From an uncultured virus (IMG/VR IMGVR_UViG_3300028797_000153) (lineage: Duplodnaviria; Heunggongvirae; Uroviricota; Caudoviricetes): DNA of 64,000 nt. Both the position numbers and the translations under genes were made by a program. The DNA lies in the IMG/VR virus record IMGVR_UViG_3300028797_000153; one strand, written 5' to 3'. Below the pieces are notes generated by a model, which was given only the letters and a program-made list of their open reading frames with translations, was not told the origin of the DNA and searched no databases. Every line of letters starts with the position of its first letter. Positions within the stretch are counted from its first letter, which is position 1. This document shows positions 1-10,780 of this stretch, piece after piece.

Positions 1-10
1 CCACCATTAT

Positions 11-85
11 GGGCCGATAGTTTAATTGGGAAAACACCCGCCCTGCAAGCGGGAGTTACGGGTTCAATTCCCGCCGTGTCCACCA
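11..85 (+). tRNA. tRNA-Ala(TGC)
   Basis: Cloverleaf, anticodon loop CC-TGC-AA (C33), G3:U70, CCA end. Confidence 0.85.
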
Positions 86-90
86 TTAAT

Positions 91-165
91 GCCCCTGTAG
101 TATAATGGCTATTACAGTTGTCTTGTAAACATCAGAAGGCCGTTCGATTCGACCCTGGGGCACCA
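91..165 (+). tRNA. tRNA-Thr(TGT)
   Basis: Cloverleaf, loop CTTGTAA, CCA. Confidence 0.9.
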
Positions 166-170
166 TATAT

Positions 171-247
171 CCGGGATTGGCTCAGTTTGGTAGAGCACTT
201 GATTTGGGATCAAGGGGTCAAAAGTTCAAATCTTTTATCTCGGGCCA
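171..247 (+). tRNA. tRNA-Pro(TGG)
   Basis: Cloverleaf, loop TTTGGGA, CCA. Confidence 0.9.
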
Positions 248-252
248 TAAAT

Positions 253-328
253 GGGGCCATAGCTCAATTGGGAGAGCGCCACATTAGCATTGTGGAGGTT
301 GCGAGATCGTCCCTCGTTGGTTCCACCA
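253..328 (+). tRNA. tRNA-Ala(AGC), A34
   Basis: Cloverleaf, loop TTAGCAT, atypical T-loop ATCGTCC, CCA. Confidence 0.85.
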
Positions 329-332
329 TTAT

Positions 333-451
333 AGAACCTGTGCTTATTTCTAATAGGGCAAGCAGGTTGTCGCTGGTTCGAATCCAGCCTTCCCAACCAT
401 TATCGGGAAGTAGCTCAGTTGGCAGAGCACCCGCAAAATATTAGCCAGGTC
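333..451 (+). ncRNA. Y-RNA-like module 1 with circularly permuted tRNA body
   Basis: ACCTG-T-GCT-TATTTCT ... AGC-CAGGT closing stem; inside: T arm, CTTCCCA-ACCA, spacer, CGGGAAG, D arm. Confidence 0.8.
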
Positions 452-456
452 AAATT

Positions 457-532
457 GCACTCTTAGCTCAGCTGGGAGAGCGACTGCTCGACGTGCAGTA
501 GGTCATAGGTCCGAGCCCTATAGAGTGCACCA
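457..532 (+). tRNA. tRNA-Val(GAC)
   Basis: Cloverleaf, loop TC-GAC-GT (atypical), CCA. Confidence 0.85.
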
Positions 533-559
533 TTAAATTCATAGAAGGAGAAAAAGATT

Positions 560-640
560 ATGATGAATTTAACCAAAAAGATTAAAAATATAAGAAAAAC
601 CAAAAGAATTGGTTTCTTTCATCATGGCTTAATTAGTTAG
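560..640 (+). CDS. Leader peptide 1 (Lys/Arg-rich, 26 aa) MMNLTKKIKNIRKTKRIGFFHHGLIS
   Basis: AAGGAG RBS; followed by terminator; 3' end complementary to terminator 5' arm. Confidence 0.75.
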   Translation: MMNLTKKIKNIRKTKRIGFFHHGLIS

Positions 641-663
641 TAAAAAACTTAAATTAATAGTTT

Positions 664-698
664 ATGCTGGGTAGTTAAGTCTGCTCAGCATTTTTATT
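664..698 (+). terminator. Attenuator terminator 1
   Basis: ATGCTGGGTAG/CTGCTCAGCAT 11-bp stem + T tract. Confidence 0.8.
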
Positions 699-703
699 AA
701 ATT

Positions 704-780
704 GCCCCCATAACTCAACTGGATAGAGTAACGGTCTTCTAAACCGTAAGTTGAAGGTCCGAGTCCTTCTGGGGGCGCCA
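704..780 (+). tRNA. tRNA-Arg(TCT)
   Basis: Cloverleaf, loop CTTCTAA, CCA. Confidence 0.92.
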
Positions 781-782
781 TT

Positions 783-841
783 AGAGCCTATACTTATTTC
801 TAGCTTCAAGCAAACAACTTTTAATTGTTCATAGTTAGGCC
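783..841 (+). ncRNA. Y-RNA-like module 2 carrying a Lys(UUU) anticodon stem-loop
   Basis: GCCTA-T-ACT-TATTTCT ... AGT-TAGGC; internal AACAA-CTTTTAA-TTGTT. Confidence 0.75.
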
Positions 842-845
842 ATAT

Positions 846-923
846 GGGTCCATAACTCAGTTGGATTAGAGTACGAAACTTTTAATTTCGGAGTCGAGAG
901 TTCGAGTCTCTCTGGACCCACCA
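846..923 (+). tRNA. tRNA-Lys(TTT)
   Basis: Cloverleaf, loop CTTTTAA, CCA. Confidence 0.92.
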
Positions 924-927
924 ATAT

Positions 928-1005
928 GCACCCTTAGCTCAGTTGGCTAGCAGCACTACACTTTTAATGTAGGGGTCCTGGGTTCGAGTCCCAGAGGGTG
1001 CACCA
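928..1005 (+). tRNA. tRNA-Lys(TTT), second divergent copy
   Basis: Cloverleaf, loop CTTTTAA, CCA. Confidence 0.9.
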
Positions 1006-1008
1006 TAT

Positions 1009-1085
1009 ACCTCCTTAACTCAACTGGTTAGAGTACTTGCCTCTTAAGCATGGAGTTCTGGGTTCGAGTCCCAGAGGAGGTACCA
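1009..1085 (+). tRNA. tRNA-Lys(CTT)
   Basis: Cloverleaf, loop CTCTTAA, CCA. Confidence 0.9.
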
Positions 1086-1100
1086 TTAAAATAAATATAT

Positions 1101-1110
1101 TGTATAATAT
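1101..1110 (+). promoter_or_regulatory. TGTATAATA -10 promoter motif (host sigma-A type); further copies near 1339, 2083, 3022, 5883, 8227, 9605, 11971, 15183, 18297, 19295, 22645, 26165, 34252, 43265
   Basis: Recurrent intergenic motif containing the TATAAT consensus, often just after a terminator and before a gene. Confidence 0.75.
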
Positions 1111-1115
1111 ATTAT

Positions 1116-1191
1116 GCCGGCTTAGCTCAGCTGTTAGAGCAACGCACTAGTAATGCGTAGGTCGGGGGTTAGAGTCCCTCAGCCGGCACCA
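1116..1191 (+). tRNA. tRNA-Thr(AGT), A34
   Basis: Cloverleaf, loop CTAGTAA, T-loop TTAGAGT, CCA. Confidence 0.88.
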
Positions 1192-1193
1192 TC

Positions 1194-1302
1194 AGAGCCC
1201 ATGCTTATTTCTTTCGGCTTCTAACCGGGTGGTCGTTGGTTCGAATCCAACCGTTCCAGTTGGAACGTAGCTCAGTGGGAGAGCACCTTATTTAGCTGGG
1301 CC
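1194..1302 (+). ncRNA. Y-RNA-like module 3: complete circularly permuted tRNA-Arg(UCU) mimic
   Basis: GCCCA-T-GCT ... AGC-TGGGC stem; order anticodon arm (CTTCTAA), T arm, loop-closed acceptor CGTTCCA/TGGAACG, D arm. Confidence 0.85.
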
Positions 1303-1355
1303 AAAACTAAAAAACTATATTATTTTAAGATTTTTCAATGTATAATATAGTGCAT

Positions 1356-1430
1356 CCTCCTGTAGCTCAACAGTTAGAGCGGGCGCCTTATAAGCGTCAT
1401 ACCTTGGTGCGACTCCAGGCAGGAGGACCA
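1356..1430 (+). tRNA. tRNA-Ile(TAT)
   Basis: Cloverleaf, loop CTTATAA, CCA. Confidence 0.85.
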
Positions 1431-1446
1431 ATAATAAAAAATATAT

Positions 1447-1460
1447 GCTAAATTAAAATG
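1447..1460 (+). promoter_or_regulatory. GCTAAATTA motif, putative phage-specific (late) promoter; also at 2114, 14832, 29248, 34777, 41389, 47883, 47979, 51501, 55207, 61929
   Basis: 11 exact intergenic copies seen, mostly at starts of virion-gene operons. Confidence 0.7.
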
Positions 1461-1475
1461 CGAGGAGAGAACAAA

Positions 1476-1562
1476 ATGATGATTAGAAGAAGTTATCAAT
1501 TGAGCCAATTATCAGGTTTATGTGGTCATAACCAATTTTTGTTTTACTCCAATCGCGATTAA
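1476..1562 (+). CDS. Leader peptide 2 (Gln/Leu codons, 28 aa) MMIRRSYQLSQLSGLCGHNQFLFYSNRD
   Basis: GAGGAG RBS; TCCAATCGC (1548-1556) complementary to terminator arm GCGATTGGA. Confidence 0.75.
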   Translation: MMIRRSYQLSQLSGLCGHNQFLFYSNRD

Positions 1563-1594
1563 ATAGAATAAGCTTAAAGTATAATATATAATTT

Positions 1595-1633
1595 AATGAG
1601 CAGCGATTGGAAAAATTGTTGCTCATTTTATTT
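1595..1633 (+). terminator. Attenuator terminator 2
   Basis: AATGAGCAGCGATT/AATTGTTGCTCATT 14-bp stem + T-rich tail. Confidence 0.8.
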
Positions 1634-1659
1634 ACAAAGCAAAAATTCTATGGTATAAT
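1631..1659 (+). promoter_or_regulatory. Sigma-A-type promoter
   Basis: TTTACA-17 nt-TATAAT with upstream TG. Confidence 0.7.
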
Positions 1660-1668
1660 ATTAAATAC

Positions 1669-1743
1669 AGGGAAGTAGCCAAGTGGTAAGGCATGAGACT
1701 TTGACTCTCACATTCGAAGGTTCGACCCCTTCCTTCCCTGCCA
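1669..1743 (+). tRNA. tRNA-Gln(TTG)
   Basis: Cloverleaf, loop CTTTGAC, CCA. Confidence 0.92.
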
Positions 1744-1745
1744 AT

Positions 1746-1830
1746 GCTCTGGTGGTGGAACTGGCATACACATGGCACTTAAAATGCCACGCCGTAAGGA
1801 TTGAGAGTTCAAATCTCTCCCGGAGCACCA
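1746..1830 (+). tRNA. tRNA-Leu(TAA)
   Basis: Cloverleaf with long variable arm, loop CTTAAAA. Confidence 0.92.
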
Positions 1831-1834
1831 TTAT

Positions 1835-1911
1835 GCTCCTCTAGCCCAACTGGCAGAGGCAATAAGCTCAAAACTTATTCAGTCTGAGTTCGAATCTCAG
1901 GGGGAGTACCA
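1835..1911 (+). tRNA. tRNA-Leu(CAA), short variable loop
   Basis: Cloverleaf, loop CTCAAAA, CCA. Confidence 0.85.
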
Positions 1912-1913
1912 TA

Positions 1914-2035
1914 AGAGCCTATGCTTATTTCTTAAGGACTGAAAATCCGCGTGTAGGTGGTTCAACTCCATCCCTTCCCGCCAAATATTTGGGAAGTGTA
2001 GCTCACCGGTAGAGCAGCGAACTATTAGCTAGGCC
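1914..2035 (+). ncRNA. Y-RNA-like module 4: circularly permuted tRNA-Phe(GAA) mimic
   Basis: GCCTA-T-GCT ... AGC-TAGGC; GGA-CTGAAAA-TCC, T arm, CTTCCC-GCCA, spacer, GGGAAG, D arm. Confidence 0.85.
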
Positions 2036-2152
2036 AAAAAATAAAAAATTTCAGAAATATATTTACAATTAATTAAAAATGTTGTATAATATATGTGAGC
2101 GTTAAAAATATACGCTAAATTATAATGGCGCAAAGCTAGGAAGGAAAAGATT

Positions 2153-2269
2153 ATGCAAAAACTATCTATCATGTCCCTTAATCGTGAACATAGTGATTCA
2201 GTATATTTCGGTTGCTGGAATATTTTTGCTACCATCGGATCATCTAGTTTTGAGCAGGTTAATGAATAA
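2153..2269 (+). CDS. Leader peptide 3 (38 aa) MQKLSIMSLNREHSDSVYFGCWNIFATIGSSSFEQVNE
   Basis: AGGAAGGA RBS; 2235-2250 pairs 16 bp with 2297-2312 (terminator 5' arm). Confidence 0.75.
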   Translation: MQKLSIMSLNREHSDSVYFGCWNIFATIGSSSFEQVNE

Positions 2270-2301
2270 ATAAATTAAAAACATTAACAAAAAATGAAAT
2301 T

Positions 2302-2332
2302 AGGTGGTCTGAATAAGATCACCTTTTATTTT
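2302..2332 (+). terminator. Attenuator terminator 3
   Basis: AGGTGGTCT/AGATCACCT stem + TTTATTTT. Confidence 0.8.
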
Positions 2333-2335
2333 ACT

Positions 2336-2421
2336 GGGTAGGTGGTAGAGTGGTCAATTACACCTGACTGTAAATCAGGCGCCACAGGCTTACGGTGGTT
2401 CGAATCCATCCCTGCCCACCA
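2336..2421 (+). tRNA. tRNA-Tyr(GTA)
   Basis: Cloverleaf, long variable arm, loop CTGTAAA. Confidence 0.92.
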
Positions 2422-2426
2422 GATAT

Positions 2427-2502
2427 GTGGACGTGAATCTGACGGTTTAGATGCTAGTCTGTGAAACTAGATTACTGAGTTCAACTCTCAGACATCCACC
2501 CA
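2427..2502 (+). tRNA. tRNA-His(GTG) with encoded G-1
   Basis: Loop CTGTGAA; G2427 opposite discriminator C. Confidence 0.85.
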
Positions 2503-2506
2503 AAAT

Positions 2507-2596
2507 GGTCTATTAGCTCAGTCTGGTAGAGCGGCCGACCAAAGTGTCGGTGACAAACAGCGCGCGAGTGCATTGGTTCAAATCCAATATAGACCA
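2507..2596 (+). tRNA. Atypical tRNA-like gene (8-nt anticodon loop CCAAAGTG, long unpaired variable region, no encoded CCA)
   Basis: GGTCTAT/ATAGACC acceptor, normal D and T arms. Confidence 0.65.
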
Positions 2597-2604
2597 TCGT
2601 ATAT

Positions 2605-2679
2605 GCTCCCATAGACAAGCGGTTAAGTCATGCGCCTTTCACGCGTATATCGCCGGTTCGAATCCGACTGGGAGTACCA
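2605..2679 (+). tRNA. tRNA-Glu(TTC)
   Basis: Cloverleaf, loop CTTTCAC. Confidence 0.9.
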
Positions 2680-2683
2680 AAAT

Positions 2684-2760
2684 GGGTCATTAGCTCAGCT
2701 GGTGGTAGCGACTGACTGTTAATCAGTAGGCCGAAGGTTCAAGTCCTTCATGACCCGCCA
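2684..2760 (+). tRNA. tRNA-Asn(GTT)
   Basis: Cloverleaf, loop CTGTTAA. Confidence 0.92.
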
Positions 2761-2764
2761 ATTT

Positions 2765-2838
2765 CCAGGCATAACTCAATGGTAGAGTGCACGACTGATA
2801 ATCGTGATATCTTAGTTCAATTCTAGGTGCCTGGACCA
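2765..2838 (+). tRNA. tRNA-Ile(GAT)
   Basis: Cloverleaf, loop CTGATAA. Confidence 0.9.
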
Positions 2839-2841
2839 TAT

Positions 2842-2915
2842 AGGAGTTTGGTATATTGGCCGTGCCTTGGTCTCCAAAACCAATGAAGTGAGTTCGATTC
2901 TTACAACTCCTGCCA
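2842..2915 (+). tRNA. tRNA-Trp(CCA)
   Basis: Cloverleaf, loop CTCCAAA. Confidence 0.88.
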
Positions 2916-2917
2916 AT

Positions 2918-2996
2918 GGCCCTGTAGCTCAGCCGTGGTGAGAGCACTGGTCTGAAAAACCAGGTGTCGGCGGTTCGACTCCGCCTGGGGCCACCA
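2918..2996 (+). tRNA. tRNA-Phe(GAA)
   Basis: Cloverleaf, loop CTGAAAA. Confidence 0.92.
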
Positions 2997-3046
2997 AATA
3001 GTTAATTTATTATAGATTAACTGTATAATATTATGTATTGCAACAT

Positions 3047-3123
3047 TGCGGGGAAGTGTAACGGTTTGCATCTGAGGCTCATAACCTCAGGGTAGTGAGG
3101 TTCAACTCCCACCCCCGCGACCA
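3047..3123 (+). tRNA. tRNA-Met(CAT), initiator-like
   Basis: TGCGGGG/CCCCGCG acceptor with weak 1:72 pair, loop CTCATAA. Confidence 0.82.
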
Positions 3124-3199
3124 GGACCGTTGGTGTAGCGGTTTACATGTCACACTGTCACTGTGAAGATGACGGGTTCGACTCCCGTACGGTCCGCCA
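3124..3199 (+). tRNA. tRNA-Asp(GTC)
   Basis: Cloverleaf, loop CTGTCAC. Confidence 0.92.
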
Positions 3200-3202
3200 C
3201 TT

Positions 3203-3287
3203 AGAGCCTATACTTATTTCTTAATGGTTATAGAAGGTTCGATTCCTTCACCGCCCTCTAACCCAGGGCAGTGATATTAGTTAGGCC
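3203..3287 (+). ncRNA. Y-RNA-like module 5 (T arm + acceptor-like hairpin)
   Basis: GCCTA-T-ACT ... AGT-TAGGC; GAAGG-TTCGATT-CCTTC then GCCCT/AGGGC. Confidence 0.75.
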
Positions 3288-3349
3288 AAAAAATTATTAT
3301 TTATAAAGGAGATTAAGTTTATGTAAGTATTAAAAAGGAGGGCATAACA

Positions 3350-3601
3350 ATGAGTTATAGCCGCAAACAATTTGATAAACATAAACTTAAAAAACTTGCC
3401 CATGATAGCTGTAATGGCTGGAAAGGCGGAGCTTATTATGACAGAAGAAAAACCTGTTATAGACGCTACTGGAAAAGTCATGGACATACTTCAAGATATA
3501 CTTATTATAAAAAGTATTATCACAAAAGAATGCGAAGATTTATTAACAAGTATGGTTGGTATTCTAAAAAGGAATTTGATATAATCTGGACTTGTTGGTA
3601 A
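3350..3601 (+). CDS. Small basic hypothetical protein
   Basis: AGGAGG RBS, 83 aa, K/R/Y-rich. Confidence 0.7.
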   Translation: MSYSRKQFDKHKLKKLAHDSCNGWKGGAYYDRRKTCYRRYWKSHGHTSRYTYYKKYYHKRMRRFINKYGWYSKKEFDIIWTCW

Positions 3602-3608
3602 AATAATT

Positions 3609-3684
3609 AGCTGGGTGGCCAAGTGGTTAAGGCACAAAGTTCATACCTTTGGGATCGTCAGTTCAAATCTGACCCCAGCTACCA
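3609..3684 (+). tRNA. tRNA-Met(CAT) (elongator Met or Ile2)
   Basis: Cloverleaf, loop TTCATAC. Confidence 0.82.
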
Positions 3685-3686
3685 TC

Positions 3687-3748
3687 AGAGCCGATACTTA
3701 TTTCTGTCTAGAGACAATTTCCTGCCACGAAATCCATATAGTTCGGCC
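3687..3748 (+). ncRNA. Y-RNA-like module 6 carrying a Gly(GCC) anticodon stem-loop
   Basis: GCCGA-T-ACT ... AGT-TCGGC; internal ATTTC-CTGCCAC-GAAAT. Confidence 0.75.
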
Positions 3749-3756
3749 AATAATAT

Positions 3757-3830
3757 GGCTTCTTAGTTTAAAAGGAAAACTGGATCCTTACAAGATCAGG
3801 ACGGTGGAGCGTTACCATCAGAGGCCACCA
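3757..3830 (+). tRNA. tRNA-Val(TAC)
   Basis: Loop CTTACAA, atypical T-loop AGCGTTA, CCA. Confidence 0.8.
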
Positions 3831-3835
3831 AATAT

Positions 3836-3910
3836 GCGGACGTAGGACAATGGTTAGTCCACTAGCTTGCCATGCTAGATATACGGGTTCGATTCCCGCC
3901 GTCCGCTCCA
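3836..3910 (+). tRNA. tRNA-Gly(GCC)
   Basis: Cloverleaf, loop TTGCCAT. Confidence 0.92.
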
Positions 3911-3915
3911 CCGAA

Positions 3916-4049
3916 GTGACTCTTCCTTATATCGTAAAGAATAAGCGGGTATTGCTTACCTGGGTCCAAAGCAACGGTTAAGCTGGCATTACCGAGAGTG
4001 CCAGAGAAGGTGTCTGTGGTTCACCTGAGGAGTTAGTCACCAAACCACA
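3916..4049 (+). ncRNA. Unidentified multibranch RNA with 3' pseudoknot
   Basis: GTGAC/GTCAC closure, four internal hairpins, loop TGTGGTT pairs with 3' AACCACA. Confidence 0.6.
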
Positions 4050-4053
4050 ATAC

Positions 4054-4128
4054 GCGGGTATCGTCCAATGGTTAGGGCCTCTGCCTTCCAAGCAGAAGAT
4101 ACCGGTTCGACTCCGGCTACCCGCTCCA
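4054..4128 (+). tRNA. tRNA-Gly(TCC)
   Basis: Cloverleaf, loop CTTCCAA. Confidence 0.92.
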
Positions 4129-4155
4129 TACTAAAAATAATTAAGGAGAAAAAGT

Positions 4156-4251
4156 ATGAAAACAATGAATTCACGAAGTCTAAGTTGTGGTCGCTGTAGT
4201 AGCAGTTGTTTTCATTCACTCAATTTTCTCCCAGTAGCTCAATCGGATTAG
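4156..4251 (+). CDS. Leader peptide 4 (Ser/Cys/Arg-rich, 31 aa) MKTMNSRSLSCGRCSSSCFHSLNFLPVAQSD, overlapping tRNA-Arg(ACG)
   Basis: AAGGAG RBS with the same AGGAGAAAAAG context as leader 1. Confidence 0.65.
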   Translation: MKTMNSRSLSCGRCSSSCFHSLNFLPVAQSD

Positions 4252-4305
4252 AGCATAACACTACGAATGTTAAGGTTGCAGGTTCAAGTCCTACCTGGGA
4301 GGCCA
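4228..4305 (+). tRNA. tRNA-Arg(ACG)
   Basis: Cloverleaf, loop CTACGAA. Confidence 0.92.
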
Positions 4306-4306
4306 A

Positions 4307-4381
4307 GCTTTGGTAGCCAAGTGGTTAAGGCCTCGGTCTGCAACACCGATATCGCGGGTTCAAATCCCACCCAAAGCTCCA
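4307..4381 (+). tRNA. tRNA-Cys(GCA)
   Basis: Cloverleaf, loop CTGCAAC. Confidence 0.92.
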
Positions 4382-4386
4382 TATTT

Positions 4387-4474
4387 GGAGGCATGGAGTA
4401 ATGGTATCTCAATACCCTGCTAAGGTATCCATCGGGCAACTGATGTCCGCGTTCGAATCGCGGTGCCTCCGCCA
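4387..4474 (+). tRNA. tRNA-Ser(GCT)
   Basis: Long variable arm, loop CTGCTAA. Confidence 0.92.
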
Positions 4475-4489
4475 AATGAAAGGATTTTT

Positions 4490-4795
4490 ATGAAAGTGTA
4501 TTTTATAGCTACAGCAAATAATATTAAAAAAGATAAGCTCGGTTGGATAGACTGGGGCAAATCACACAGAGTTGTTGGCTTTTTTGATAATTTAGAAGAT
4601 GCTAAAAAGGCTGTTGAAGATAATTGGTGTGATCTATATGAAAATGGCTACTATAAATATGCTATTATAGAAGAAAGGGAAGATGGTCTATACTCTACTT
4701 GTGATAATCCTATTTTCTATAAGTGGGAAGATGGTGGCTATAAAAAAATAAAAAGGCCAAGAGCAACTTATGGATTCTGTAATTTCACAATTTAA
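4490..4795 (+). CDS. Hypothetical phage protein
   Basis: GAAAGGA RBS before ATG 4490; the track start lies inside the tRNA. Confidence 0.8.
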   Translation: MKVYFIATANNIKKDKLGWIDWGKSHRVVGFFDNLEDAKKAVEDNWCDLYENGYYKYAIIEEREDGLYSTCDNPIFYKWEDGGYKKIKRPRATYGFCNFTI

Positions 4796-4796
4796 T

Positions 4797-4880
4797 ACCC
4801 AGATGGTGGAATGGTAGACACCCGTGGCTTAGAACCACGTGCCGAAAGGCGTGCAGGTTCAAATCCTGTTCTGGGTACCA
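4797..4880 (+). tRNA. tRNA-Leu(TAG)
   Basis: Long variable arm, loop CTTAGAA. Confidence 0.92.
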
Positions 4881-4900
4881 ATATAATAAAGGACTAATTT

Positions 4901-5653
4901 ATGTATTTTAAAATTCCAGAAGCTTTTATTAGAAACAGACGTGAATTATTTGCATTAATGGTTGCAACAGTTTCATCTATTCATGTAATTCAGCAACAAA
5001 TAGATACAACTAATTTAACTATTTCAGAAATGCAAGAATTTTTAGCTAAAAAAGGCTTTATAAAAGTTGTTCCAGATAAACCTACTACATTACAAGAGCT
5101 AATTAATAAGCTAGATATCGCAAGTACAGCTTTTGTTAAATTAGCAAATAATAAATATATTGGAATAGTTGCAAATACATATTATTATACAGAAAACTTA
5201 GACAGTATAAAAGTTGCTGAATATTATTTAAATACTGAATATGGCCACAATCTTAAATATAAATGTATAAAATGTGGAAATTGTTGTCGTGTATATGGCT
5301 CAAATGGTGGCGTAATATTTTCTGAAGAGGATATTAACAAAATAGAACAAAATACACCATATACAATTCGTGATAAAGTTGTATTGGTATCTAATAAAAG
5401 TAATAAAAAACTATATCATCTTAGCCTTAAAAATAACCAATGTGAGTTCTTAGATAAAGATAATAGTTGTAAGCTAATTAATACATTATCTGTTAATTGC
5501 CAACTACCTGTAATTTGTTATTTATTTAGAGCTGGTCGTGGTGCAGGTATTAATTTCTTTAGCTGCCCAGGTATTGGATTGCCTGATGGTGATAACTGGG
5601 ATATATTAGATGTATTTAATTGGATTGATAAATATTGTAAAGAATATCAATAA
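4901..5653 (+). CDS. YkgJ/CxxCxxCC cysteine-cluster protein
   Basis: KCIKCGNCC ... CEFLDKDNSC ... PVICYLF motifs. Confidence 0.7.
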   Translation: MYFKIPEAFIRNRRELFALMVATVSSIHVIQQQIDTTNLTISEMQEFLAKKGFIKVVPDKPTTLQELINKLDIASTAFVKLANNKYIGIVANTYYYTENLDSIKVAEYYLNTEYGHNLKYKCIKCGNCCRVYGSNGGVIFSEEDINKIEQNTPYTIRDKVVLVSNKSNKKLYHLSLKNNQCEFLDKDNSCKLINTLSVNCQLPVICYLFRAGRGAGINFFSCPGIGLPDGDNWDILDVFNWIDKYCKEYQ

Positions 5654-5654
5654 T

Positions 5655-5737
5655 GCGCAAGTGGTGGAATTGGTATACACGCAGGTCTAAGAAGCCTGTG
5701 CTTCGGCATAAGAGTTCAAGTCTCTTCTTGCGCACCA
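5655..5737 (+). tRNA. tRNA-Leu(AAG), A34
   Basis: Long variable arm, loop CTAAGAA. Confidence 0.9.
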
Positions 5738-5740
5738 TAT

Positions 5741-5827
5741 GGAGGGTTGTGATAATTGGTAGTCGGGCTGTCTTGAAAACAGTTGGGTCGCAAGGCCTTT
5801 AGGGTTCGAGTCCCTAACCCTCCGCCA
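5741..5827 (+). tRNA. tRNA-Ser(TGA)
   Basis: Long variable arm, loop CTTGAAA. Confidence 0.92.
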
Positions 5828-5908
5828 TATAAAAGTTTATTAAAAAATCATATTAAAAGTATGGTTTTTTTCTTTTTATAACTGTATAATATTACGAGGT
5901 GTTTTATT

Positions 5909-9618: not shown

Positions 9619-10780
9619 CTAGTTACGCAGAAATGCGTTTCTATATATAAGATATATTAAGGCCAGACCCGACATGTTGAAATATCTAGGATGAGGTCGC
9701 CAATACAGCCTTAATATATATCCGGACTTATAGCCAGTAAGCCATATGACTAGACATGAGCTTACTCTTGAAAAGGCACAACGGGGTTTGGCAAGTAATA
9801 TCCACAACTAGTTATTAAAACTTGCTGGGCAAAAATAAGCATAAGTCCATTAACAACGAGGGCACGTTGTAAAATAACGAGTTTAGCCGAGTCTTATAGA
9901 CGGTATGGAGTCTGATATAAACCCATGCAACCCACATTCTTTATAGGAGGTATGGAACGCTAGAATAAATACTTTGGGATCTAGCTTATCTGGCCGGCCC
10001 AATGGTTAGTTTGGGGTGCAACTCCTCAACTGGTCTCAAAACACCCATGCAGCAGTAACCAGGGTGAATACTAGAACGTCAAAACGTGAAAGAGCCTGCT
10101 GCATTTAGAGAGTCGGAGTATTTACCGGCTGCGGGTTCGCCCGCTTCTTATTAGAGCTTAAAAAGCACTTGCACCATTATGAACTTCCGAGAAAGCAGAA
10201 GGTGAAGCTGACGAAAAGCCTAAGCGTCTATAAATAAAGTTTATTGGTAAATTTATGAAAACATAGGGTACTCACACCGAATGTTTCTTGCAGCAATGCG
10301 CTTAACTGGTGGGTTGGGGTTAAAGTTGTCTACCAATGTGAGAAAAACAACTGCTCCCTTGGCTAATTTAGTCCGGTAGGGAGATAATATAAGTTTAGGT
10401 GGCCCAGGAGGTATTTATTATTCCCCTCTCCCCAGAAACATAGTGAGGTCACCAGCCTATAATCAGGTATAGCAATGGCACCTGGATGCTATTATCAAAT
10501 AGCATAACTTACGAGGCCGCTTTATGCCGCCGCCCTATTGAGTTTCAACTCTGATAGGTCCAGAGGACGCCGAACGAAAGTTCTACTCCCGAAGAGACGA
10601 CCTAAGCATGTCCTTAAACTGCTTATTATAGAAGGAAAACTATACAACCCGTATGCACCCACTACTACGTTAATAAATGGGTATATTTATTTCCCGGTCC
10701 CTTAACGGCAGTTTCCAGTTTCTGTGAAACTAAATAATATAAGGACTGCAGGCAAATGAAGCAATTCACACTACCTGCTT
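9619..10780 (+). ncRNA. Cluster of small structured RNAs (unidentified)
   Basis: No credible ORF, GC-richer than coding DNA, successive self-closing stems, promoter at 9605. Confidence 0.6.

Follow-up and report, generated by a model that had tools for sequence, protein, structure and literature searches.

Leaders such as trpL and hisL are attenuators of amino-acid operons, and the thr and ilvGMEDA leaders are multivalent. In the pheM-pheST attenuator and in mgtL, the proline-codon leader of Salmonella, the speed of leader translation reports the supply of charged tRNA. Another kind of switch is the T-box. It binds uncharged tRNA via a specifier loop, without translation, and some T-boxes are said to precede tRNA genes in Bacillota.

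The leader considered here lies in the tRNA array of an uncultured phage, and four sequence features of the leader-peptide attenuator class are found in its module (2153-2324). As in pheL-pheA, to go by the accessible part of PMC3082878, it has a short translated leader, codons upstream of an antiterminator arm and an overlapping terminator. It also shares with this class the 1:2 pairing and a stall that is predicted to give read-through. Unlike the leader-peptide attenuators of amino-acid operons, it is phage-borne, and its output is tRNA genes, not enzymes. Known attenuators address one to three amino acids with runs of the sensed codon (the runs are described in the accessible part of PMC3082878), whereas the phage leader addresses some 15 amino acids and 18 kinds of tRNA, mostly once each. 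A biosynthetic attenuator of the trp, his, phe or ilv type was therefore rejected, the codons being mostly single, for 15 amino acids, and tRNAs lying downstream. A further difference is that the codons of the phage modules follow isoacceptors, with the code split among the blocks of one array and rewritten upon reshuffling.

The pheM-pheST and mgtL attenuators are similar in that they control a gene tied to translation or stress; they differ in responding to a single amino acid, in having a protein output and in being chromosomal. A T-box is alike in being a terminator/antiterminator switch that reports the state of tRNA in Bacillota-type hosts. It is, however, translation-free, while the signal in the phage leader is frame-specific. 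No T-box was matched by Rfam at gathering in the window, nor at an E value of up to 1 in 1900-2620, and this candidate was rejected.

The main proposals for phage tRNA arrays, in the accessible part of PMC10264068, are codon compensation and the replacement of depleted tRNAs. Phage-encoded tRNAs are proposed there to replace those depleted by VapC, PrrC, colicin-type and retron nucleases, and such counter-defence offers a likely purpose for a sensor-gated block. That part of the paper makes no mention of attenuation or of a leader, and a sensor providing tRNAs on need is not described in it. Likewise, no description of attenuation of phage tRNA genes was found in a search of abstract openings in an incomplete literature collection. 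The attenuator principle is known; what would be new here is the attenuation of phage tRNA genes with a leader of the checklist type. The codon match, together with the predicted RNA switch adjoining it, suggests that the phage likely makes more of the tRNAs in its block when ribosomes stall for want of any one of them.

The phage and its tRNA array

The DNA that was analysed, called the window, is a stretch of 64,000 nucleotides (IMG/VR IMGVR_UViG_3300028797_000153) that forms the beginning of a 76,968-base contig of an uncultured T4-like phage. The T4-like assignment is based on a Gp23-type capsid protein and a T4-like portal. Thg1 and a kinase/phosphoesterase/RNA-ligase protein are encoded near the tRNAs on the contig. 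The closest cultured capsid proteins, at 27-30% (about 30%), are those of Bacillus, Listeria and Streptococcus phages, and as these are Bacillota phages, the sequences give a weak hint of a Bacillota host. Among the sequencing runs searched, the best matches to the phage sequence were bovine gut metagenomes, one sample of which may be its source; a second study contains 81% of the sequence words, and none of the runs listed as carrying the phage sequence was an RNA run. Among the pieces listed from contigs of four DNA runs, none spanned the sensing codons, and they gave no usable leader variants.

Bases 1-5827 constitute a + strand tRNA array, in which Rfam recognises 32 tRNAs at gathering; a tRNA-His comes in addition. 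It is broken up by three leader-plus-terminator modules (560-691, 1476-1627 and 2153-2324). Downstream of the third leader (2153-2269), a block of 19 tRNA genes with 18 anticodon kinds extends over 2336-5827. The proximal tRNAs (2336-2996, + strand) are Tyr-GTA, His-GTG, Glu-TTC, Asn-GTT, Ile-GAT, Trp-CCA and Phe-GAA, the same seven that the sequence-only reading had placed there; ARAGORN calls all but the tRNA-His, which is recognised by Rfam at 2428-2499 (40.7 bits against a gathering threshold of 29), its GTG anticodon being read off the fold. The distal tRNAs (3047-5827, + strand) are two Met-CAT, Asp-GTC, Val-TAC, Gly-GCC, Gly-TCC, Arg-ACG, Cys-GCA, Ser-GCT, Leu-TAG, Leu-AAG and, last, Ser-TGA, which ends at 5827. 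A sensor of seven amino acids ending at 2996, as envisaged earlier, was too narrow a view: the leader covers some 15 amino acids and 18 kinds of tRNA, down to the tRNA-Ser at 5827.

Within the block, the terminator scan picked up a single weak terminator-like site (3745-3760). A weak hairpin with a T-run 3' of the last tRNA (5842-5870, + strand, -8.0 kcal/mol), absent from that scan, is likely the end of the tRNA block. Ahead of the distal tRNAs, at 3022, lies a TGTATAAT motif from which these could be driven independently. Because of this motif, it is only by inference that the leader and the distal tRNAs are placed on one transcript to 5827.

Several other elements are present in the array. 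Among the proximal tRNAs, a tRNA-like element (2506-2598; Rfam 48.4 bits) has no readable anticodon; a 6-nt loop replaces the anticodon loop, and the variable arm is long. A34 and Ile-TAT anticodons are uncommon in bacteria and may help to place the phage host; the window has them in Ala-AGC (253), Thr-AGT (1116), Leu-AAG (5655) and Ile-TAT (1356). An 83-aa ORF rich in K, R and Y (3350-3601), for which Pfam and PHROG searches gave no match, is also located inside the array; it is found at 77% in L390/L391 and is kept in related arrays.

A repeated cassette with paired conserved arms occurs at 331-455, 781-845, 1192-1305, 1913-2037, 3200-3290 and 3686-3750, and the same flanked type is seen in many related loci. 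Some cassettes contain swapped tRNA halves, with the T-arm before the D-arm (Arg-TCT-like at 1195, Phe-GAA-like at 1915), and others have nothing but an anticodon stem-loop between the arms (Lys-TTT-like at 784, Gly-GCC-like at 3688). They may be Y-RNA-like decoys or permuted tRNAs. A weak match to YrlA (Y RNA-like) at 1948-2022 (22.7 bits, E 0.027, gathering 69) points to Y-RNA-like modules, and since the permuted-tRNA reading is not established, no cassette was added by hand to the tRNA counts. One Arg-TCT call in the related contig L088 may derive from such a cassette. Past position 1196 of L088, a tRNA-Lys-TTT-like 5' half is interrupted right after the anticodon by a long insertion, which is possibly an intron.

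The leader and its codons

The third leader is a 38-codon ORF (2153-2269, + strand), and a Pfam search with it gave no match. A Shine-Dalgarno-like AGGAAGGA (2138-2145, + strand) is placed 7 nt 5' of its ATG. Further upstream, a promoter-like site of the sigma70/sigmaA type, TTTACA-17-TATAAT (2062-2090, + strand), agrees with the consensus at 11 of 12 positions and would serve as a promoter. The motif GCTAAATTA (2114-2122, + strand) is a candidate phage late promoter, and we take it to resemble the late promoters of T4. On the 77-kb contig, 14 copies are present on the + strand against 1.9 expected, and one on the - strand; by a scripted rule, none falls within ATG-started ORFs of at least 80 aa. 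It precedes tail-sheath-like and head-region genes and, on visual inspection, several of the related leaders. Such a distribution makes GCTAAATTA a likely late promoter for this group of phages. The position of the leader between promoter and tRNAs, with a ribosome-binding site, is a feature of the attenuator class.

Decoding was scored by strict wobble and by a lenient rule, in which U34 reads four codons in family boxes. Within codons 2-25, the 18 anticodon kinds of the block decode 20 of the 24 codons (strict) or 22 (lenient), and 17 or all 18 of the kinds, respectively, have a codon there, for 15 amino acids. Among 16,678 coding windows of 24 codons from the same genome, none reached 15 kinds by the strict rule or 18 by the lenient one; as a background, such a block of 18 kinds reads 58-64% of the codons of this genome. 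The two codons unmatched under the lenient rule are codons 2 and 3, and all 22 of the sensing codons, 4-25 (2162-2227, + strand), are decoded by block tRNAs with lenient wobble. The seven proximal tRNAs decode only 10 of the 24. The segment NREHSDSVYFGCWNIF, which makes up codons 10-25 (2180-2227), had been said to hold a codon for each of these seven, and TAT, CAT, GAA, AAT, ATT, TGG and TTC/TTT are indeed present in it. Of the 17,086 16-residue windows in the long + strand ORFs of the genome, 13 contain all seven residues.

The codons that are left out also follow the array. Codons 4-25 are without Lys, Gln, Ala, Thr or Pro, the tRNAs for which sit in earlier blocks; all five are lacking in 21 of 16,780 windows of 22 residues, and no such window holds all 15 amino acids. 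The Leu and Arg codons of the leader are CTA and CTT, with no TTA, and CGT, with no AGA. In the other two frames, 10 of the 18 kinds are matched. A match of regulatory codons to the products of the regulated genes, upstream of the antiterminator arm, is likewise characteristic of the attenuator class.

The predicted RNA switch

The 16-bp antiterminator with at least four G-U pairs, proposed by the sequence-only reading, was recovered. Its 5' arm (segment 2; 2235-2250, + strand) lies within the leader ORF and pairs at 16 of 16 positions with the 3' arm (segment 3; 2297-2312, + strand), with exactly four G-U pairs and a duplex energy of -18.3 kcal/mol. The terminator with which it was said to compete was also found by the scan; it is an intrinsic terminator (2302-2332, + strand) with a 9-bp stem (2302-2324) and a T-run, 12 nt 5' of tRNA-Tyr. 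Bases 2302-2312 are common to both, so that the two predicted helices are mutually exclusive, again as in the attenuator class. The whole-structure energy is -15.7 kcal/mol with the antiterminator versus -12.9 kcal/mol with the terminator, and when the codons of the leader were shuffled, one shuffle in 5,000 paired equally well with the terminator arm.

Segment 1, in the 5' UTR (2128-2140, + strand), pairs with 2243-2255 in MFE folds (-15.4 kcal/mol) and is the best of 23 UTRs for this leader. Across the 23 modules described below, the pairing of the 5' UTR beats that of swapped UTRs (2/100,000); the own UTR ranks first in only 6 of the 23, the element being present in some modules only. A 7-bp hairpin predicted over the stop codon (2258-2288, + strand), inside the antiterminator loop, is a possible pause or loop-shortening element.

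When a ribosome was modelled on a transcript ending at 2315, the antiterminator was kept with the A site at 2156-2222 (P at least 0.98). Most of it remains at 2225; the loss sets in at 2228-2231, the site of the first off-block codons (GCT, ACC). The antiterminator arm ends 16 nt 5' of the stop codon; a lone modelled ribosome at the stop (footprint -17 to +13) leaves it uncovered and the antiterminator re-forms (P about 1.0), unlike a modelled queue of ribosomes, which prevents this. Termination would then hinge on timing or on further ribosomes behind the first. The arm is closer to the stop, or spans it, in most relatives. On the full-length transcript at equilibrium, the terminator wins wherever the ribosome stalls (P 0.60-1.0); folding of this kind is unable to show switching, and read-through would have to be kinetic.

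In five aligned homologues, 96% of the antiterminator cells are paired and two pairs are changed on both sides, which does not go beyond shuffles (score equalled in 36/500, two-sided pairs in 148/500). The terminator covaries in these homologues, with 97.8% of the cells paired and three pairs changed on both sides. Two alignment columns of these homologues co-change across the antiterminator arm, the shared arm and the terminator arm.

Sister modules and mini-ORFs

Module 1 (560-691, + strand) has a leader rich in AAA, AAG, AGA, ACC and ATA and a terminator, and precedes Arg-TCT, three Lys, Thr-AGT and Ile-TAT. Module 2 (1476-1627, + strand) consists of a CAA/TTA/TTG-bearing leader and a terminator before Gln-TTG, Leu-TAA and Leu-CAA, with a promoter-like site (1631-1659) downstream of its terminator. 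The code is divided by codon box: Leu is split between module 2 (TTA/TTG) and the third leader (CTA/CTT), and Arg between module 1 (AGA) and the third leader (CGT). Most of the codons of module 2 that are not for Gln or Leu are decoded by block 3. In related arrays too, off-block codons of upstream leaders are often read by the next block (3/4 in L016b, 4/8 in L146a and 2/7 in L139b; lenient rule, post hoc), which is what nesting would require.

A second tier is formed by mini-ORFs. One of these, led by a Shine-Dalgarno sequence (4156-4251, + strand), runs into tRNA-Arg-ACG, and 10 of its 23 codons are read by Arg-ACG, Cys and Ser-GCT against 1.1 expected. Others occur in L016, L171, L004, L038 and L031. 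The terminator-less mini-ORFs overlap the tRNA gene that follows by 16-36 nt and abound in codons of the next one to three tRNAs; all 15 that were found, taken together, have 66 of 271 codons matched (19.1 expected). They are a possible second sensor, at the level of processing.

Tracking in related phage contigs

Scans of viral and metagenome contigs gave 252 loci, or 195 once overlaps were merged. Detection that ignored codon content gave 54 distinct terminators immediately ahead of tRNAs; 23 of them are accompanied by an SD-led ORF of 14-65 codons, and the other 31, several of which simply end an upstream gene, have none. Among the 23 modules are modules 2 and 3 of the window, along with a near-identical copy of module 1. 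As they are related, they are not independent events, and five of the blocks are cut by contig ends. Each leader was tested from codon 4 to n-12, a rule set after the leaders had been seen. For the headline counts, blocks were defined by rule, with hand addition limited to the Val-TAC of the window (Rfam).

Homologous leaders were expected to track the downstream tRNA content if the sequence-only reading held, and this they do: 206 of 374 tested codons are decoded by the own block versus 94.2 expected (strict rule), or 224 versus 103 (lenient). In 13 of the 23 modules, no block scores better than the own one, which ranks first, and no re-pairing of leaders and blocks reached the observed score in 100,000. 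Out of frame, at +1 and +2, 114 and 100 of the 374 codons match, against the 224 in frame (lenient).

The match depends on position as well, as observed in the 11 modules whose block is complete and whose antiterminator reaches -15 or better. At positions where stalling would not obstruct the arm, 154 of 212 codons are matched against 78 expected; further downstream the match fades, to 18 of 48 (16 expected) and then 31 of 73 (27 expected). Synonymous codons agree with the isoacceptors of the block in 40 of 50 cases versus 26.9 expected (lenient, z 4.3), or 54 of 78 versus 42.4 (strict, z 3.0). The energy of the antiterminator with its own terminator averages -16.2 as compared with -11.0 for swapped pairs (0/100,000), and the spacing from stop to terminator is 23-38 nt in 22 of the 23 modules.

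Peptides behind homologous terminators are unlike one another, yet they track their own blocks. In the terminator family of the third leader, H, Y, G, F and E stand before Tyr, His, Phe, Gly and Glu in L139, and T, V, P, A, G and W before Ala, Thr, Pro, Trp, Gly and Val in L146; the true pairing of leaders and blocks in this family ranks 1 of 6. This ranking used hand-picked modules and hand-added anticodons, one of which (Asn-GTT in L139) proved on inspection not to be a tRNA; the headline counts are independent of it. In the module-1 family, K/R/T/I-ATA becomes F/K where the block is Phe-Phe-Lys-Lys-Lys (L146, L151), and a K/L-CTN leader precedes Lys-Lys-Leu-Leu in L139. The L016 block has Leu-TAA and Gln and its tested stretch has TTA and CAA, while leader 2153-2269, whose block is without these tRNAs, has neither codon there.

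The tracking is not universal. At L171@5777, none of 13 codons matches the own block, and the antiterminators of 5 of the 23 modules are weak (own rank 14-19, or energies near -11). Many related arrays are without any module, the leader of L173 is disrupted, and the 63-codon leader of L004 has no Trp codon although the array carries tRNA-Trp.

Three leaders of another layout, found by eye, were excluded from the headline counts (L171, ORF at 10331; L139, ORF at 5831; L031, reverse strand, oriented 5505). In the first, the stop precedes an extra hairpin, so nearly the whole ORF could sense; after the start codon it contains only T, I, C, K, Q, L, H, R and E, matching its block. The L031 leader has almost only amino acids complementary to this set. 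In L004 (ORF merged 6755) and L038 (ORF 2800), one leader of about 60 codons, with nearly all amino acids, stands before the whole array, and a promoter-like site lies between the terminator and the first tRNA, as in module 2.

When viral sequences were scanned for the terminator pattern, at least 120 loci were obtained; among the matches listed, one had at least two tRNAs (L291), with a promoter-like site and no leader. The module-1 leader-end pattern matched no viral loci. A GTDB scan gave 17 loci, two of them with tRNA clusters, both in one Bacteroidales MAG, which has no bearing on the host.

Proposed mechanism and alternatives

The module is probably a ribosome-controlled transcription attenuator that gates the 19-tRNA block and responds to a shortage of tRNA, not of amino acids. 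Stalling at any one of codons 4-25 would leave the antiterminator free, and RNA polymerase would read into the tRNAs. Fast translation would melt the arm 2235-2250 during the synthesis of its partner, and the terminator would form. The presence of Thg1 and of the kinase/phosphoesterase/RNA-ligase protein on the contig speaks for this reading. In an untranslated leader, the 5' UTR would pair with 2243-2255 as an anti-antiterminator, leading again to termination. The new tRNAs would relieve the stall and close the loop, a negative feedback. The trigger would be severe loss of a tRNA species, e.g., by host anticodon nuclease cleavage or late-infection exhaustion. Such a loss is a more probable trigger than mild amino-acid starvation because most of the sensed tRNAs have one codon each and the choice of codons goes with the isoacceptors; single codons would call for prolonged stalling, such as the destruction of a tRNA would cause. 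Host tRNases are a plausible specific cause of the shortage. In B. subtilis, transcription outruns translation, and this in a Bacillota-type host would weaken a ribosome-dependent switch.

The same attenuator might instead have been selected as a classical amino-acid-starvation sensor, responding to uncharged tRNA. A stall sensor is blind to whether a tRNA is uncharged or missing, and the match at the amino-acid level is also strong, as no window of 22 residues held all 15. However, a tRNA output would be no cure for a lack of amino acids. Synonymous codons follow the isoacceptors of the block, Leu and Arg are divided between modules by codon box, and classical leaders use runs of the sensed codon, not single copies (accessible part of PMC3082878). 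Given codons that follow isoacceptors and an output of tRNA, the supply of tRNA is a likelier signal than that of amino acids; tRNA shortage likely ranks well ahead of starvation, and selection for the latter is improbable. The attenuator with its OR gate, in which a stall at any single codon would suffice, is supported by geometry and by tracking in relatives; the amino-acid signal first attached to it is less likely.

It might also be that the codon-matched leader acts mainly otherwise, through RNA stability, processing or a leaky terminator with a fixed ratio, the antiterminator being minor, for example where transcription and translation are uncoupled in the host. The arm left uncovered by a ribosome at the stop fits this, as do the matched mini-ORFs without a terminator and the promoter-like motifs downstream of some terminators (module 2, L004, L038). 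Against it, the match fades where the antiterminator begins, the complementarity to the own terminator exceeds that of swapped pairs, and the spacing is conserved; we hold such a route to be just as unlikely as selection for starvation. That the ORF is a small functional peptide or a chance frame, with a hairpin that ends an upstream transcript and a codon match due to coincidence or composition, would suit the large share of genome codons that the block reads anyway and the 31 of 54 terminators without a leader, but it is very improbable, as 17-18 of 18 kinds were never reached in the coding windows, the controls by re-pairing (which largely refutes it), frame and position all reject chance, and dissimilar peptides behind homologous terminators still track their blocks.

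Around the preferred attenuator, a wider circuit is proposed tentatively, its chances falling a little short of even. In each tRNA block, a checklist of one codon per tRNA would audit the tRNA pool of the host, and anticodon-nuclease cleavage of any one tRNA species would induce the block with its replacement. Nested modules, in which upstream leaders also bear codons of downstream blocks lacking a promoter, and second-tier mini-ORFs would then belong to an inducible, self-limiting counter-defence circuit made of RNA and ribosomes alone.

Significance

If true, a switch that opens a tRNA block upon slow decoding would mean on-demand replacement of tRNAs. The purpose of phage tRNA arrays is a long-standing question, and it becomes directly testable with a 280-base reporter. 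Attenuation would be widened from one to three amino acids to a checklist covering most of the code, and tRNA genes would be added to its targets, with a compact biosensor for tRNA-cleaving defence systems as a further outcome. The leader sequences could then predict which tRNAs a phage expects to lose.
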